From Escherichia coli (GTDB taxonomy: Bacteria > Pseudomonadota > Gammaproteobacteria > Enterobacterales > Enterobacteriaceae), in NCBI RefSeq assembly GCF_003019035.1, contig NZ_CP027447.1: a DNA stretch of 64,000 bases. The stretch is one strand, 5' to 3'. Under the pieces are notes generated by a model. The model was not told where the DNA came from, did no database searches, and saw only the letters and a program-made list of their open reading frames with translations. Shown here in pieces: positions 3,831 through 39,586 of this stretch. Position 1 is the first letter of the stretch. Every line of letters begins with the position of its first letter. The translations under genes were made by a program, and so were the position numbers.

Positions 3831-5512
3831 GCCTCGTCCCTCCATGGTAGTCGTAACGTTATTCGGGTGTAACTATCAGGCTCACAGGCGACGCTTATCC
3901 CATAGTCATCGCCAAACCGTTCACGTAAACGCTTATCCACCAGATTCATCCCCAGCCCACTGGCATTGGTTACCGGTTGATACAAACCGGCATTGTCTTC
4001 GATCTCCAGCATCAAATGTTGCCCCTCACGTCGGGCGCTGATTGCCACTCGCCCTGTATCCAGCAGTTGTGATGTCCCATGTTTAATGGCGTTTTCCACT
4101 ATCGGTTGCAGGGTAAACGCGGGCAATTGCTGCTGGGATAATTCTTGCGGAATAGCAATGTTGACCTGCAACCGCGACTGGAAGCGCGCCTTTTCAATTT
4201 GCAGATAAGCGTTCACATGTTCAATTTCGTCGGCGAGAGTAACAAACTCCGAAGGCCGCTTTAAGTTTTTGCGGAAAAAAGTGGAAAGATACTGCACCAG
4301 CTGGCTGGCCTGTTCGCTGTCGCGGCGGATCACCGCTTTAATGGTGTTAAGCGCATTAAACAAAAAATGGGGATTCACCTGGGCGTGAAGCAGTTTGATC
4401 TCTGACTGGGTGAGCATCGCTTTTTGCCGCTCATATTGCCCGGCGAGGATCTGCGCCGAAAGCAGTTGCGCAATCCCCTCACCCAGCGTGCGATTGATTG
4501 AACTGAATAAACGGTTTTTGGCTTCATACAATTTGATGGTACCCATCACTCGCTGATTTTCACCACGCAACGGAATGACCAGCGTCGACCCCAGTTTGCA
4601 TTGCGGATGCAAAGAGCAACGGTAAGGCACTTCGTTGCCATCAGCGTAGACCACTTCACCGGTTTCAATCGCTTTTAAGGTGTAAGTCGAAGAAATCGGT
4701 TTGCCGGGTAAATGGTGGTCGTCACCAATTCCGGTAAAGGCCAGCAATTTCTCTCGATCGGTAATCGCGACTGCACCAATATCCAGCTCCTGATACAGCA
4801 CCTGTGCCACTTTCATGCTGTTCACTTCGTTAAACCCCTGACGCAAAATGCCTTCCGTCGAGGCCGCCACTTTCAGCGCAGTGGCAGAAAAAGCTGAAGT
4901 GTATTTTTCAAACATCGCGCGTTTATCGAGCAATATACGCATAAACAGTGCCGCGCCGACGGTATTGGTGACCATCATTGGCGCAGCAATATTACTCACC
5001 AGACGCACCGCATCTTCATAAGGTCGGGCGATCGCCAGGATGATCAACATTTGCACCATTTCAGCGACGAACGTAACGGCACCGGCGGTAATGGGGTTAA
5101 AGACTTTATCAGTGCGCCCGCGACGGATCAGGATGCTGTGTACCAGGCCGCCGAGCAATCCTTCAACGATGGTCGAGATCATGCAACTTAGCGCGGTCAT
5201 GCCCCCCATCGAATATCGATGTAACCCGCCGGTCAGACCAACCAGCCCACCGACGACCGGACCGCCGAGTAAGCCGCCCATTACCGCGCCTATCGCACGG
5301 GTATTGGCAATAGAATCGTCAATGTGCAACCCAAACCAGGTGCCCATGATGCAGAAGATGGAAAAGACGATGTAGCAGAGAAATTTATGCGGCAGACGAA
5401 CCGTGACCTGCATTAACGGTATGAATAATGGCGTTTTACTCATTAACCACGCAATGACTAAAAAAACGCACATCTGCTGAAGCAGCAGCAACACCAGATT
5501 AAAATCGTACAT
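3827..5512 (-). CDS. btsS: Sensor histidine kinase BtsS (YehU), LytS family, 561 aa
   Basis: Multi-TM N-terminus, GAF and HisKA_3/HATPase regions; ORF 3827..5527 trimmed to [10 protein letters not shown] start. Confidence 0.9.
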
Positions 5513-5733
5513 ACCCGCAAACCACACTTCCCTTTAAAACGCGTAACATACATTGCCTGCGTTTAACTTTCTTTGAACTCTTGCAGAAAAATGAGAATTC
5601 GTGAGTATGATCACTCAAAATCGCCTGGCAAAAATAAAATCACCCTATAGATGCACAAAAAACGGGCAAAACTACCTGGTTCGCAAAACTGCGTCTAAAG
5701 TTAAACCGGGACCTCGCGAGCAAGGGTGAGACG

Positions 5734-34519: not shown

Positions 34520-35389
<870 letters not shown>

Positions 35390-35788
35390 TCACCAGCAAA
35401 GGGTATTTTCCAGCGCCGTACTAAAATCACGGTCATCTGCGTGCGGGGCTGGAGACTTCTGGTTTAAATCTGTCAGTTGCTGGCGCACCTGAAGTCGCCC
35501 TGCCCCTTCGCCGCTGGAAGAATTTTCGTTGAAATTACGCATTTCAGCTTCGAACAATATGGCATCGAGATTTTGCAATTTATTCAGCGCGCGCAGAAGA
35601 GAAATGAGGGTATCAAGATTTAAACTTCCTCCCTTTTCAATCCGCTTGACCGTTGCAATGCCCACCAATGCACGATCGGCTAACTGCTGTTGGGTCAATG
35701 ATAATGAGATCCGCGTTTCTTTAATGCGTGCACATAGAGATAAAATAATTTCGTTGTTATTCATCGTATTATATTTCATCTTACGCAT
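35390..35788 (-). CDS. XRE-family helix-turn-helix transcriptional regulator (accessory island gene); start codon uncertain among three in-frame ATGs (35788, 35779, 35764)
   Basis: HTH_XRE signature LTQQQLADRALVGIATVKRIEKG; stop abuts yeiG stop with no intergenic gap; overlaps the 3' end of the upstream dehydratase gene. Confidence 0.7.
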   Translation of the reverse strand: MRKMKYNTMNNNEIILSLCARIKETRISLSLTQQQLADRALVGIATVKRIEKGGSLNLDTLISLLRALNKLQNLDAILFEAEMRNFNENSSSGEGAGRLQVRQQLTDLNQKSPAPHADDRDFSTALENTLCW

Positions 35789-37133
35789 CCTTTTTTCTTG
35801 GCTGCAATTTGCTCAGACAGCCATGATAAGTTTCACGGTATTTAGCGCTCATATCCTTTCCGGTTTCATACATCGCGGAAATTATCTCATCCAGCGTAAT
35901 GCACGGCTCGCTTATGCGACTCAACGCCATCGTCGTTGCGTTGATAGCTTTCACAGCTGAAATAGCATTTCGTTCAATACAAGGAATTTGTACCTGCCCG
36001 CCAACTGGATCACAGGTCAAACCTAAATGGTGTTCCATTGCAATTTCTGCCGCGCTGAGTACCTGAGTCACTGACCCGCCCATAAGTTCTGCTAATCCTG
36101 CTGCCGCCATTGAACTGGCAACGCCTATTTCTCCCTGACATCCAACTTCAGACCCCAGAATAGAGGCATTTTTTTTGAACAGAATGGCGATGGCACCGGC
36201 GGTCAGAAAAAAGCGAGTAACGGAGTAAGTATCAAGTTCATGAATGAATTTATCATACCAACACAGTACGGCCGGGATAATACCGCTCGCGCCGTTGGTG
36301 GGTGCTGTCACGACGCGTCCACCAGCAGCATTTTCTTCGCTCACCGCAATGGCAAAAGTATTAACCCAATTGATCGCAGTCAGGAAGTCATTAGTAAACC
36401 CCTTTGCCTGCAACGATTTATATAAAGCACAGGCACGACGGTTAACCTGATACGGACCTGGAAGTAATCCTTCTGTATGCATCCCGCGATAGACCGCATC
36501 CTTCATTACTTCCCATTTTTTATTGAAATCGTCATGCAAAAAACCAGATGTCTGGCAGTGCAGTTCGTTTTTCATCATTAATGCCGCGACAGATAATCCG
36601 TTTTGCTGACAAAGTTTTAATAATTCGTTTGCGTTCTGGAATTCAAAAGGATGTGGAGTGACTGATGGAGGAATAATCGCCTCTCCTGCTTTTAGCACTT
36701 GACCGTCGCCGATAGAAAACCAGGTTTCTTCATAAAGTGTAAACCAGTCATCTCTGGCACGAAATGTCATCGCATAAGGGTGCCCCGGATGCGCCTGTGG
36801 ATTAGAAAGAATGGATACACTGACGTTGACACCAGGCATAACTTCCAGCGTCGCCTCAGTTTCTGCACGCCTGATGGCGGACATTTCCATGCGGATATCA
36901 ACACTGTCAGGTAAGTGGCCTTGCAAACCGAGATAAATCGCCACATCAACATTATGGCACTTGCGGCTTAATGACAGTGCACCATAAAGTTCGACATCAA
37001 TTTTCCGCAACAAAGGTAACATTTCTCGCTGTTTCAATTGTGAGACAAAATTATAAGCCGCACGCATTGGCCCGACAGTGCGGGAACTGGATGGACCTAT
37101 AACGATTTTGAATATATCTACGCAGCTTTCCAT
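35781..37133 (-). CDS. Fe-S L-serine dehydratase paralogue (SdaA/SdaB/TdcG family), about 450 aa (accessory island gene)
   Basis: Aligns by eye along its length with E. coli SdaA ([62 protein letters not shown]); start set to ATG at 37133 ([17 protein letters not shown]) rather than the upstream TTG. Confidence 0.85.
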
Positions 37134-37188
37134 TTTTGTAAATAATTCCTTCAACGTTGAAAACTCGTTATTCGTTATATCCTAGCAA

Positions 37189-37260
37189 AGATATCAAAAA
37201 TGGTACTTTTAGTATCTTATTATTTCAAGGTATCAAAAAAAGTACTTTTTTATCTTTTAT
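37189..37260. promoter_or_regulatory. Two direct-repeat copies of an approximately 27-bp palindrome-containing motif (TATCAAAAA..GTACTTTT..TATCTT) in the divergent island promoter; putative operator
   Basis: Copy 1 around 37191-37219, copy 2 around 37230-37258; copy 2 contains the perfect 16-bp palindrome AAAAAAGTACTTTTTT. Confidence 0.4.
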
Positions 37261-37343
37261 TTAACATTCACAACTGTGATTGTCAGATACATCAGCCTCT
37301 ACGAAATCTTATTATAATCATCGCAGATAAAAAGGAGCGGTAA

Positions 37344-38231
37344 ATGACGATTATTTATTTCTTGTCGCCAACAGGCATCGACATCACCCAAAAATGTCTG
37401 AAAGATTATCTGCAACATTTAAAGATTTCCCCCTCGGTGTTTTCGTTAACAACGAATTACAGTAGGCAAATAAATAGAGAGTATCTAAAGCTAGTATTAC
37501 CAAATGATGTTACCAACCCTGCTTTTTATGCTGGTTTACGTCACCGTGCTGATCATCATCATTTTGATTTTTTCCGCAAACCTACGGACTTACCGGCTGA
37601 GGGAATTATTGCCTTTGATATGGATTCCACCTTTGTTGAAGAGGAAGGTGTTGATGAAATAGCCCGTAGACTCGGCATCTCTGAAAAAATCACCGCACTG
37701 ACCCGTGAAGCGATGGAAGGGAAAATCGATTTTGATACCAGTTTTACCCGGCGAATTGCCATGCTTAAAGGAACGCATAAAGATATATTGCATCAAGTTT
37801 GTGAACAGATGACTCTTTCACCAGGTCTTGAAACTATTCTTCCCATACTAAAAGAAAAAGGATTCAAGACGGCAATTATATCTGGAGGTTTGGATATTTT
37901 TACTGAGCGATTGAAGGAAAAATATCAACTTGATTTTGCATTTTCTAACTCTGTGCGCATTAAGGAAGATCTGTTAACTGATACAATTACCTTACCTATT
38001 ATGAATGCAGAAAAGAAAAAGCAAACCCTGATAAATTTAGCGACAGAGTTAGCTATCTGCCGTGAAAACATCATTGCCTGCGGAGATGGCGCTAATGATA
38101 TTCCTATGCTTCTGCATGCCGGGAATGGCGTGGCATGGAAAGCAAAACCTAAAACCCGGGAAAAAGTTGCTAACCAGATTAATTTTAATGGTTTCGAGTC
38201 GCTTCTCTTTTTTATAGAAGAAAAATTATAG
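37344..38231 (+). CDS. HAD-superfamily phosphoserine-phosphatase-like protein (SerB paralogue), 295 aa (accessory island gene)
   Basis: HAD motifs DMDSTF (I), SGG (II), GDGANDIPML (III); collinear with SerB catalytic domain; AAGGAG Shine-Dalgarno 8 nt upstream of ATG. Confidence 0.8.
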   Translation: MTIIYFLSPTGIDITQKCLKDYLQHLKISPSVFSLTTNYSRQINREYLKLVLPNDVTNPAFYAGLRHRADHHHFDFFRKPTDLPAEGIIAFDMDSTFVEEEGVDEIARRLGISEKITALTREAMEGKIDFDTSFTRRIAMLKGTHKDILHQVCEQMTLSPGLETILPILKEKGFKTAIISGGLDIFTERLKEKYQLDFAFSNSVRIKEDLLTDTITLPIMNAEKKKQTLINLATELAICRENIIACGDGANDIPMLLHAGNGVAWKAKPKTREKVANQINFNGFESLLFFIEEKL

Positions 38232-38263: not shown

Positions 38264-39586
38264 ATGAGCTTGAAAAAATTTATTTTCAGCCAGGCCGACC
38301 AACCGGTGGTCAAACGGCAAGAAGAAGTTGATCATACTTATAAAAAATTTCGCATTGAAATCATCACCTCTGTATTTATCTCTTATGCCGTATTTTATTT
38401 AACCCGCAAGAATTTCTCTGCGGCCATGCCGGCGATGTTAACGGATACGTCATTAACTGCACAAGATTTCGCTATCATGTCGTCGGTCTTTTACATTCTT
38501 TATGGCTCCATGAAGTTTGTAGGTGGCATGTTAGTTGATAAAATTAATCCACGCGCGATGACCGGCCCCGTACTTATTGGCGTCGGTATTGTTAATATTC
38601 TTTTCGGTTTTTCAGACAGCGTTGCTGCGTTCTATATCCTGTACAGCCTTAATGCTATTCTTCAGGGTACCAGTTTTCCGCCGATGGCAAAAATTATGGC
38701 CTCGTGGTTCTCTAAAAATGAACGCGGGCGCTGGTGGGCAGTTGTTGAAGCGGCGCATAATATTGGCGGTAGTCTTGCGCCTCTCCTGACAAGCTTTGCT
38801 ATTGCTTTTAGTGGCAGCTGGAAGATGGGCTTTTATGTTCCGGGTGTAATCTCACTGATTATGGGGATTGTTGCCTTGTTTACGATAAAAGATCGTCCCG
38901 GCACGCTCGGTTTGCCTAACGTCGGTAAGTGGCGCAACGACCCGACAGAACTTGCACAAGTTAAAGCAAGTCCGGTTGATCTCAGTTTTTGGCAAATATT
39001 CGTTAAATATATTCTTACCAACCCATTAGTTTGGCTCATTATCCTCGGGGATATGTCGGTCTATATTGCACGCACCATCCTCAATGACTGGCCACAAATT
39101 TATTATTCTCAGGTTCATAACTGGAGCCTGATTAAAGCGAACTCCATTATATCCTGGTTTGAAGCAGGTGGACTTGCTGGGGGATTACTGGCGGGATACT
39201 TGTCCGATTTCATGTTTAAAAGTAACCGCTGGATGACCGGATTAATCTTTGCCATCGCTTTATGTATTTGCATCGTTCTCGTACCGCTGGTGCAGGACGT
39301 CTCCTATACATTAACGGCTATTCTGTTTACAATCATGGGGTTTGCATTGTATGGACCGCATATGTTATTCGCTGTCGGGTGTCTTGATGTTACGCATAAA
39401 GATGCGGCAGGTTCCATTACTGGATTCAGGGGCTTGTTTAGTTATTTAGGCGCGGCAATGGCAGGGCTTCCAGTTATTATGGTGAAAAACAGTTGGGAAT
39501 GGTCAGGAGTGTATATTTACGCCGTCATTACCATTTTGCTGACAACATTTTCACTGGCCTTACTGGCAAAATTTCATCGGTTATAA
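38264..39586 (+). CDS. MFS transporter of the organophosphate:phosphate antiporter (OPA) family, GlpT/UhpT/PgtP-like, 440 aa (accessory island gene)
   Basis: 12-TM MFS; OPA-family signatures (YLTRKNFSAAMP, WFSKNERGRWW, LYGPHMLFAVG, AAGSITGFRGLFSYLGA) resembling GlpT; Shine-Dalgarno AAGGA upstream. Confidence 0.8.
   Translation: MSLKKFIFSQADQPVVKRQEEVDHTYKKFRIEIITSVFISYAVFYLTRKNFSAAMPAMLTDTSLTAQDFAIMSSVFYILYGSMKFVGGMLVDKINPRAMTGPVLIGVGIVNILFGFSDSVAAFYILYSLNAILQGTSFPPMAKIMASWFSKNERGRWWAVVEAAHNIGGSLAPLLTSFAIAFSGSWKMGFYVPGVISLIMGIVALFTIKDRPGTLGLPNVGKWRNDPTELAQVKASPVDLSFWQIFVKYILTNPLVWLIILGDMSVYIARTILNDWPQIYYSQVHNWSLIKANSIISWFEAGGLAGGLLAGYLSDFMFKSNRWMTGLIFAIALCICIVLVPLVQDVSYTLTAILFTIMGFALYGPHMLFAVGCLDVTHKDAAGSITGFRGLFSYLGAAMAGLPVIMVKNSWEWSGVYIYAVITILLTTFSLALLAKFHRL

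Follow-up and report, generated by a model that had tools for sequence, protein, structure and literature searches.

Dimers of small XRE-type helix-turn-helix (HTH) proteins that bind paired dyad operators are a familiar kind of bacterial switch. The Cro and repressor proteins of phage 434 recognise ACAA-N6-TTGT operators, whose spacer is not contacted and tunes affinity through its A/T content. The C proteins of restriction-modification systems (C.Esp1396I, C.AhdI) place two dimers on two neighbouring dyads and activate or repress depending on the site that is filled; hence, a small HTH protein of the XRE kind need not be a repressor only. Upstream of hipBA in Shewanella oneidensis there are four GTGTA-N6-TACAC operators for HipB, a protein that inserts its C-terminal Trp into HipA (PMC4150777). 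In E. coli, HipB binds cooperatively to four TATCC-N8-GGATA operators and carries an unstructured tail with a terminal Trp that serves as a Lon degradation signal (PMC3376134). On the metabolic side, the E. coli sdaCB operon for serine uptake and deamination has a promoter regulated by CRP and Lrp (PMC10882989). Here, we analysed a stretch of 64,000 nucleotides from an E. coli chromosome (the window), in which two direct repeats, named box 1 and box 2 in the following, lie between the divergent operons of a small island related to serine catabolism. We read them as paired operators, probably of the XRE protein encoded in the same island, whose regulator family seems to be undescribed.

According to the RefSeq annotation and Pfam/NCBIfam scans, the island consists of four genes between yeiG and cirA. 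A serine dehydratase (SDH) gene and the XRE gene form the sdh-xre operon on the minus strand, and a serB-like phosphatase gene and a gene for a transporter of the major facilitator superfamily (MFS) are located on the plus strand. The intergenic region between both operons (37134-37343) comprises 210 bp with 28% GC. A first reading of this DNA, made from the sequence only, had pointed to two repeat copies about 39 bp apart between the dehydratase and the phosphatase/transporter genes, and the repeat search confirmed this: the copies at 37188-37210 and 37227-37249 are 23 nt long, identical at 20 of 23 positions (87%) and 39 bp apart. Allowing one 1-nt indel, their similarity extends to approximately 31-33 nt, with TATCTT after each copy. 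The best 23-mer direct repeat in dinucleotide shuffles of the intergenic region reached 15.1 matches on average and 18 at most, so that none of 300 shuffles attained the observed 20. Furthermore, the degenerate 16-mer core RTATHAAAAANRRTAC, searched with at most one mismatch, matched only the two boxes in the window, where 0.09 matches were expected. Other elements of the sequence-only reading were found as described, namely a perfect 16-bp palindrome in copy 2 (AAAAAAGTACTTTTTT at 37236-37251), a TATAAT hexamer downstream of copy 2 (37313-37318) that is kept in orthologues, and the XRE protein as the sole regulator encoded in the island, the latter by annotation and domain scans.

Evidence for a function of the repeats comes from their conservation. 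Orthologous modules were gathered by a scan of species-representative genomes and look-ups of individual proteins. The same four-gene module, with XRE orthologues at 65-78% identity, occurs in Salmonella enterica subsp. arizonae/diarizonae, at least eight Citrobacter species including C. koseri, Scandinavium and several metagenomic contigs. It is mostly found at the same yeiG site; in four loci (L080-L083) the neighbouring genes differ, and the boxes that accompany the module into these different chromosomal contexts are thus module-intrinsic. In an alignment of the 16 intergenic regions, conservation is concentrated in box 1 and box 2, in a block TTAACATTCACAnCTGTGAT and in the -10 hexamer, and the DNA around these four stretches has diverged. 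The mean fraction of the commonest base amounts to 0.92, 0.86, 0.87 and 0.84 in them, respectively, compared to 0.54-0.58 for the rest. Both boxes keep their position, orientation and a spacing of 38-40 bp in all 16 orthologous clusters, with 111-114 bp between box 2 and the serB-like ATG and 51-70 bp between box 1 and the sdh ATG. Nine E. coli haplotypes vary at 18 intergenic positions, none of which is a substitution in the boxes, in the block at 37260-37281 or in the -10 hexamer, where about six would be expected under an even spread; the only variation in a box within E. coli is a 1-nt indel in the A run of box 2 in one assembly. Chance or neutral duplication, considered as origin of the repeats, is rejected by these conservation data. 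Moreover, scanning the 64-kb window and approximately 130 kb of orthologous loci with a position weight matrix (PWM) gave two strong sites in every locus and no more (20-32 bits; 29.6 bits for box 1), the next best reaching no more than 16 bits. Since the PWM was trained on these same sites, the informative part of the scan is the absence of other matches. The boxes are very probably functional protein-binding sites.

To describe the anatomy of a box, a matrix was built from 32 sites (two boxes in each of the 16 orthologous clusters) and every possible symmetry axis was scored. The matrix reads R1 T2 A3 T4 C5 A6-A10 Y11 R12 A13 T14 A15 C16 Y17 T18 T19 T20. About an axis at position 8.5, the complementarity of the pairs 4/13, 3/14, 2/15 and 1/16 is 0.79, 0.87, 0.78 and 0.51, and on this comparative basis the conserved unit is an imperfect 16-bp dyad of the 5-6-5 type, RTATC-AAAAAY-RATAC, with half-site centres 11 bp apart and a T tract behind it. 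Inverted half-sites of 4-5 bp separated by about one helical turn, as found for dimer operators of the Cro/C1 type (XRE), are hence present. The most informative positions lie outside the A/T tracts; they are C16, which occurs in 31 of 32 sites, T2, A3 and T4, which are invariant or nearly so, and also C5.

The sequence-only reading had put the centre of each copy elsewhere, into a palindrome of A tract, GTAC and T tract. This palindrome is real in E. coli, where box 2 shows it in perfect form, and across the family the A tract complements the T tract about axes at positions 13-14.5 with a mean of 0.50-0.57. However, the latter value is independent of the register, and the inner pairs about the GTAC-centred axis fail (0.08 for 12/15 and 0.07 for 11/16), which leaves the conserved ATAC unpaired. 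Most orthologues carry the non-palindromic AAAAACAATACTTTT; E. coli is unusual with G13 in both boxes, and it is this G that creates the GTAC. Together with paralogous boxes that lack one or both tracts, among them the half-sites without A tract in locus L100 (see below), these data mark the palindrome as an E. coli-specific feature and as the wrong symmetry element, and we give hardly any credence to it as the recognition unit.

The tracts themselves could matter in another way, if the repeats were merely structural DNA, i.e. phased A/T tracts that form curved DNA, an UP element or an H-NS nucleation site in an AT-rich acquired island and need no dedicated protein. Each box indeed contains an A5 tract and a T4-6 tract in helical phase, about 11 bp apart, and the AT-richness of the intergenic region is shared by the island as a whole (34-47% GC compared to 52-55% in the flanks). 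But the positions that carry most information (C16, T2, A3, T4, C5) are not those in the tracts, the half-sites persist in L100 without any A tract, and Salmonella as well as Citrobacter retain the boxes in much less AT-rich surroundings. A purely structural role is thus very unlikely.

The assignment of the boxes to the island XRE protein is based in part on the wider regulator family. An exhaustive HMMER search yielded relatives with 36-53% identity, in which the recognition helix GIATxKR is preserved. A serine dehydratase gene adjoins the regulator gene in all five contexts fetched, although in three gene orders: SerB-like–MFS–XRE with a convergent SDH gene (L093/L094), XRE convergent with an operon of an SdaC/TdcC-type serine transporter and SDH (L095, L100, L099), and SDH–XRE (L097). 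In all three groups with the promoter region on the contig, paired GTATC-N6-RATRC boxes are located upstream of the catabolic operon, namely GTATCAAAAATCATCC and GTATCATTTTTAATGC in L095 (38 bp apart), GTATCATAACTGATGC and GTATCAGAACTAATAC in L100 (40 bp apart, with GTATACCTTGCGATAC as a third box) and ATATCAATAATAATAT and GTATCATTTTTGTGAT in L093 (35 bp apart). The spacers of L100 are ATAACT and AGAACT, and in L095 and L093 the spacer of the second box is rich in T, not in A. Because the A tract varies among the family boxes, the half-sites represent the constant feature. An XRE gene is linked to the boxes in the modules of all 16 orthologues and in the box-bearing family loci L093/L094, L095 and L100.

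Similar dyads were also found next to much more distant homologues, defined by 28-65% identity over the matched HTH segment. Among 68 such loci, perfect GTATY-N6-RATAC dyads occur in two promoter regions only, and none was found in the remaining 620 kb of the loci fetched. The first case is a hipB-hipA operon of Sphingobacteriaceae (L032, 5839-5970), in which two perfect GTATT-N6-AATAC dyads, GTATTAAAAACAATAC and GTATTATAAGTAATAC, lie upstream of hipB and are probably the HipB operators of that locus; the first is identical to box 2 of C. koseri. The second case is a Chloroflexi operon with 62% GC (L041, 1035-1808) encoding a DUF4160 protein and a 165-aa protein with a C-terminal HTH_3 domain, where a perfect GTATC-N6-GATAC dyad (GTATCATAAGTGATAC, followed by TTTT) is situated 37 bp upstream. 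As a separate observation, one of the L032 dyads ends directly before the hipB ATG.

Thus, three independent comparative lines, i.e. the phylogenetic footprints, the boxes that accompany the regulator family through changed gene orders and the dyads in front of distant homologues, support the earlier suggestion of paired operators for the island XRE protein; its symmetry element needs correction, and its label repressor is not established. From these comparisons, we consider it likely that the HipB-like XRE protein binds the two boxes. Alternatively, they could be occupied by a host factor encoded elsewhere, such as a nucleoid protein or an unlinked serine/nitrogen regulator, while the XRE protein binds another element, for example the block TTCACAnCTGTGAT. 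This possibility gains from the fact that boxes and TGTGAT block are both conserved with a regulator family whose close members are all Enterobacterales. Furthermore, the left part of the boxes resembles the WATCAA of the IHF consensus. The E. coli sdaC promoter binds CRP and Lrp (PMC10882989). Nevertheless, compared by eye with consensus sequences, the boxes fit none of IHF, Fis, FNR, NarL, CRP or Lrp; for instance, the TTR part of the IHF site fails, the G-to-C span of a Fis site would be 16 instead of 15 bp and the order of the FNR half-sites is reversed. Bacteroidota and Chloroflexi do not possess these enterobacterial factors, yet the same dyad precedes genes for XRE homologues there, which also argues against a host factor, as does the lack of further strong sites in approximately 190 kb of host DNA scanned, and for the TGTGAT block a CRP half-site at class II distance is the better explanation. 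Taken together, binding of the boxes by a host factor appears unlikely.

The regulator itself is HipB-like. The best NCBIfam match of the XRE protein is TIGR03070 (couple_hipB), whose score of 41.5 bits falls short of the cut-off of 71.65. A profile search of the PDB returned 4ghj, 434 Cro (E=1.2e-5), Legionella HipB and Shewanella HipB, and E. coli HipB was absent from the sequence matches at E<=0.01. An AlphaFold2 model calculated from a diverse alignment shows a five-helix HTH domain with a predicted local distance difference test (pLDDT) value of 82-95, in which helix 2 spans residues 30-37 and helix 3 residues 41-48, and a predicted disordered tail from about residue 87 (pLDDT <50). An earlier model from 19 close orthologues had a pLDDT of 63 and fused helices; its Foldseek result was meaningless and was discarded. 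With the later model, 4ghj was the top Foldseek match; next came HipB of Shewanella, Legionella and Pseudomonas, restriction-modification C proteins and 434 Cro. As in HipB proteins, 17 of 21 aligned family members end in a Trp or carry one close to the C-terminus. The tail motifs kept across the relatives at 36-53% identity are a basic R-x-R-x-(R/K/Q) patch and a near-terminal N-x-(V/L/M)-x-W. The residues of the recognition region were compared with box variants (A13-to-G in both boxes of E. coli vs Q-to-L at residue 38), but no clean correlation was obtained.

Compared to Shewanella HipB (34% identity, TM-score 0.81 in Foldseek), the island shares a 16-bp dyad of 5-6-5 type in multiple copies, a small XRE HTH protein and a flexible tail with a conserved Trp. 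It differs in the half-site (GTATC vs GTGTA), in having two copies instead of four, in the catabolic genes without hipA and in the position of the boxes upstream of the main promoter. Like E. coli HipB, the system has TATC in the half-site and a similar tail end (...ENTLCW in the XRE protein, ...NLEW in HipB), and the latter provides a precedent for cooperative binding to multiple operators; the spacer, however, is 6 bp instead of 8, the couple_hipB score is sub-threshold and a HipA partner is missing. In general, several palindromic operators upstream of the regulated operon, a trait of the HipB kind, are present both here (two boxes) and in L100 (three). No HipA domain was found in the island or in the orthologous and paralogous loci, in which the neighbours are SDH, SerB-like and MFS or SdaC-like transporter proteins. 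Hence, the XRE protein resembles HipB in fold, tail and operators, but it is not classed as HipB antitoxin, because the hipA partner is missing and the model score is below threshold.

The remaining systems mentioned above share single traits with the island as well. With 434 Cro, the regulator shares a homologous HTH (36% identity in Foldseek), half-sites of 4-5 bases about a 6-bp spacer and multiple operators, but it is not part of a phage switch, its half-site is another one, and its operators are 39 bp apart and not adjacent. The C proteins, small XRE dimers too, are among the top structural matches and use paired dyads as well; their C-boxes, in contrast, are contiguous (about 35 bp in total), overlap the promoter and belong to another genetic context. 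The sdaCB operon is mirrored by the paralogous family loci, which combine sdaC-like transporter and SDH genes, and by a TGTGAT at CRP class II distance, whereas sdaCB of strain K-12 has no linked XRE gene and CRP binding in the island is deduced from a half-site. Overall, the locus is modestly unusual: a toxin-less HipB-like protein is dedicated to serine/phosphoserine operons, with operators at a fixed distance upstream of a CRP-type promoter.

Regarding this promoter, the -10 hexamer reads TATAAT, TACAAT, TATGAT or TAAAAT in all 16 orthologues and is placed 24-26 nt before the ATG. The gaps are fixed likewise in all of them, with 28-29 nt from the end of box 2 to TGTGA and 31-32 nt from TGTGAT to the -10 hexamer, and the arrangement TGTGAT-31/32-TAAAAT reappears in the paralogous promoters of L095 and L100. 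Assuming a start 7 nt past the -10 hexamer, 15 of 16 orthologues would have the centre of a CRP-type site based on TGTGA at -41.5 or -42.5, as known for class II CRP sites (PMC10882989). The left half-site is perfect and invariant, but a complete TGTGA-N6-TCACA is not present in the block, since the right half-site TCACA is not conserved (0-2 of 5 positions matched). The TGTGAT block is therefore only a candidate for a CRP-type half-site at class II distance, and the poor -35 region is as expected for an activator-dependent serB-like/MFS promoter. Independent of this assignment, the block 37260-37281 reads as an everted repeat TCACA-N2-TGTGA in E. coli and Citrobacter, and as a direct repeat with two copies of CTGTGATA in Salmonella. 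Between the boxes of E. coli, TAGTATCTTATTATT at 37210-37224 matches 12 of 15 positions of the Lrp consensus YAGHAWATTWTDCTR, but the orthologues retain little of it. An Rfam scan of 36900-37600 gave no family at E<=1, so that a riboswitch or leader RNA was rejected.

The promoter of sdh-xre is less clear. A sigma-70 consensus scan gave a single minus-strand site where 1.9 are expected by chance, hence it does not establish this promoter, and a conserved -35 element, sought for both divergent promoters in the 16-region alignment, was not found. Box 1 contains a -10-like TAYCAT facing sdh-xre, which is TATCAT in most orthologues, and makes autoregulation of sdh-xre by occlusion at box 1 plausible, if weakly supported. 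Of the earlier claim of a repressor operator, the operator stands and the repressor is not established, because the boxes are situated upstream of the TATAAT promoter, and simple occlusion would be possible at the sdh-xre promoter only. By analogy with HipB we lean to repression by the XRE protein, but the chances for it are about even.

The following scheme could combine these observations; for the XRE protein as binder, its dimeric binding, the start sites, the involvement of CRP and the sign of regulation, we infer rather than observe. One XRE dimer would bind per box and place its recognition helices (IATVKRIE) into successive major grooves, and, as in the operators of 434 and HipB, the A-rich spacer may offer a minor groove that is narrow and easily bent. 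Both dimers would then sit 39 bp apart at a rigid distance from the serB-like/MFS promoter (TGTGAT at about -42, TATAAT at -12 to -7). In the likeliest version of this scheme, the XRE protein would autoregulate sdh-xre via box 1, which overlaps the -10-like TAYCAT, and would modulate from upstream a catabolite-controlled promoter of the CRP type for phosphoserine uptake and dephosphorylation.

Several points weigh against this interpretation. The centres of the boxes lie at approximately -87 and -126 relative to the inferred serB-like/MFS start, that is upstream of the TATAAT promoter core and not over it. The T tract 3' of each box is kept yet has no symmetric partner, and a simple dimer model does not account for it; the basic patch of the tail might contact this tract, but this is speculation. 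No recognisable sensor domain was found in the XRE protein by domain scans or in the model, which leaves the sensing of serine or phosphoserine unaccounted for. Within the family, no boxes were seen in L097 and L099, where the contigs are short, and co-occurrence alone cannot tell whether the XRE protein targets the boxes or the TGTGAT block, which is conserved equally well; the close family members, being all Enterobacterales, also possess the same global regulators. Furthermore, once a single mismatch is allowed, the regions upstream of the 68 distant homologues hold no excess of dyads (0.12 vs 0.095 per kb), so that the evidence from distant homologues rests on the two loci described above.

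The tail could offer a way around the missing sensor domain. The regulator may be a domesticated, toxin-less HipB in which the tail instead of a ligand domain carries the signal, either by docking on SDH or on the SerB-like phosphatase, as the HipB Trp does into HipA, or as Lon degron, so that substrate occupancy of the enzyme or proteolysis would set the occupancy of the operators. We regard this idea as rather improbable, but if true, it would establish enzyme-coupled XRE switches as a family that serves serine/phosphoserine catabolism in gut Enterobacterales.

Features of the regulatory region and genes of the island (positions within the 64-kb window)
Feature	Position	Strand	Evidence or remark
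XRE / HipB-like regulator gene, 129 aa	35390-35779	-	Pfam HTH_3, E=2.7e-9
L-serine ammonia-lyase gene, single-chain Fe-S type, first gene of the sdh-xre operon	35781-37133	-	TIGR00720, 544 bits; annotation
Box 1: 16-bp dyad ATATC-AAAAAT-GGTAC at 37191-37206, axis 37198.5, T tract 37207-37210	37191-37210	+	repeat, conservation, PWM
Candidate sdh-xre promoter: TTGAAA 37228-37223, 17-nt spacer, TACCAT 37205-37200	37200-37228	-	consensus scan; weak
Box 2: 16-bp dyad GTATC-AAAAAA-AGTAC at 37230-37245, axis 37237.5, T tract 37246-37251	37230-37251	+	repeat, conservation, PWM
Conserved block TTAACATTCACAACTGTGAT, invariant core TGTGAT at 37275-37280, outside the repeats	37260-37281	+	conservation 0.87
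-10 hexamer TATAAT of the serB-like/MFS promoter; inferred start at about 37325; -35 poor	37313-37318	+	kept in orthologues
Shine-Dalgarno sequence AGGAG of the serB-like gene	37333-37337	+	conserved in alignment
SerB-type (HAD) phosphoserine phosphatase homologue	37344-38231	+	TIGR00338, 208 bits (cut-off of 144 exceeded)
MFS transporter, organophosphate:phosphate antiporter type (UhpC/PgtP/GlpT-like)	38264-39586	+	NF008661, 426 bits; TIGR00881, 343 bits

Judged by family membership, the gene content looks like a pathway for uptake of an organophosphate, most plausibly phosphoserine, its dephosphorylation to serine and the deamination to pyruvate; both scores of the MFS transporter given in the table are under the equivalog cut-offs of the respective models. 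Serine catabolism is a fitness advantage for Enterobacteriaceae in the gut, and with the island, serine deamination would be joined by the import of an organophosphate, most likely phosphoserine, and the removal of its phosphate. The operator GTATC-N6-GATAC, paired about 39 bp apart and at a fixed place relative to a CRP-type promoter, allows direct tests of how the island is regulated, as well as the related sdaC-like/SDH operons of other Enterobacterales, and can be used for regulon prediction. Moreover, the locus is of interest as a HipB-type antitoxin fold employed as metabolic regulator without a toxin. Our literature search on the island, the regulator family, the operator or phosphoserine catabolism in Enterobacteriaceae found nothing relevant, which is weak evidence given its incomplete coverage.

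The 5 kb around the repeats are 100% identical to those of E. coli strain SCU-301, and the full stretch was found in 86 of 5,426 complete E. coli genomes, each time on the chromosome and with one copy per genome. The stop codons of yeiG (plus strand) and of the XRE gene (minus strand) abut at 35389/35390 with zero bases between them, hence the island boundary is exactly at the end of yeiG. Divergence of the encoded proteins between E. coli and Citrobacter/Salmonella is very uneven: the MFS transporter shows 90-92% identity, on par with the flanking yeiG, and the values are 57-62% for the SerB-like protein, 72-77% for SDH and 70-75% for the XRE protein. In E. coli 2013C-3492 (L086; NZ_CP027445.1, approximately 4727615-4728968), the L-serine ammonia-lyase gene is annotated as frameshifted (pseudogene), and the regulatory region is intact. 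Within the serB-like coding region, a weak box-like ATATCAAAGGCAATAATTCC on the minus strand (37602-37621, 13.5 bits) recurs at the equivalent place in L007 and L084; it probably reflects conservation of the coding sequence and not a third operator. Finally, the XRE gene of L100 and its convergent serine dehydratase gene enclose a perfect tandem array with 29 copies of the 7-mer AATCGCT (5496-5701).

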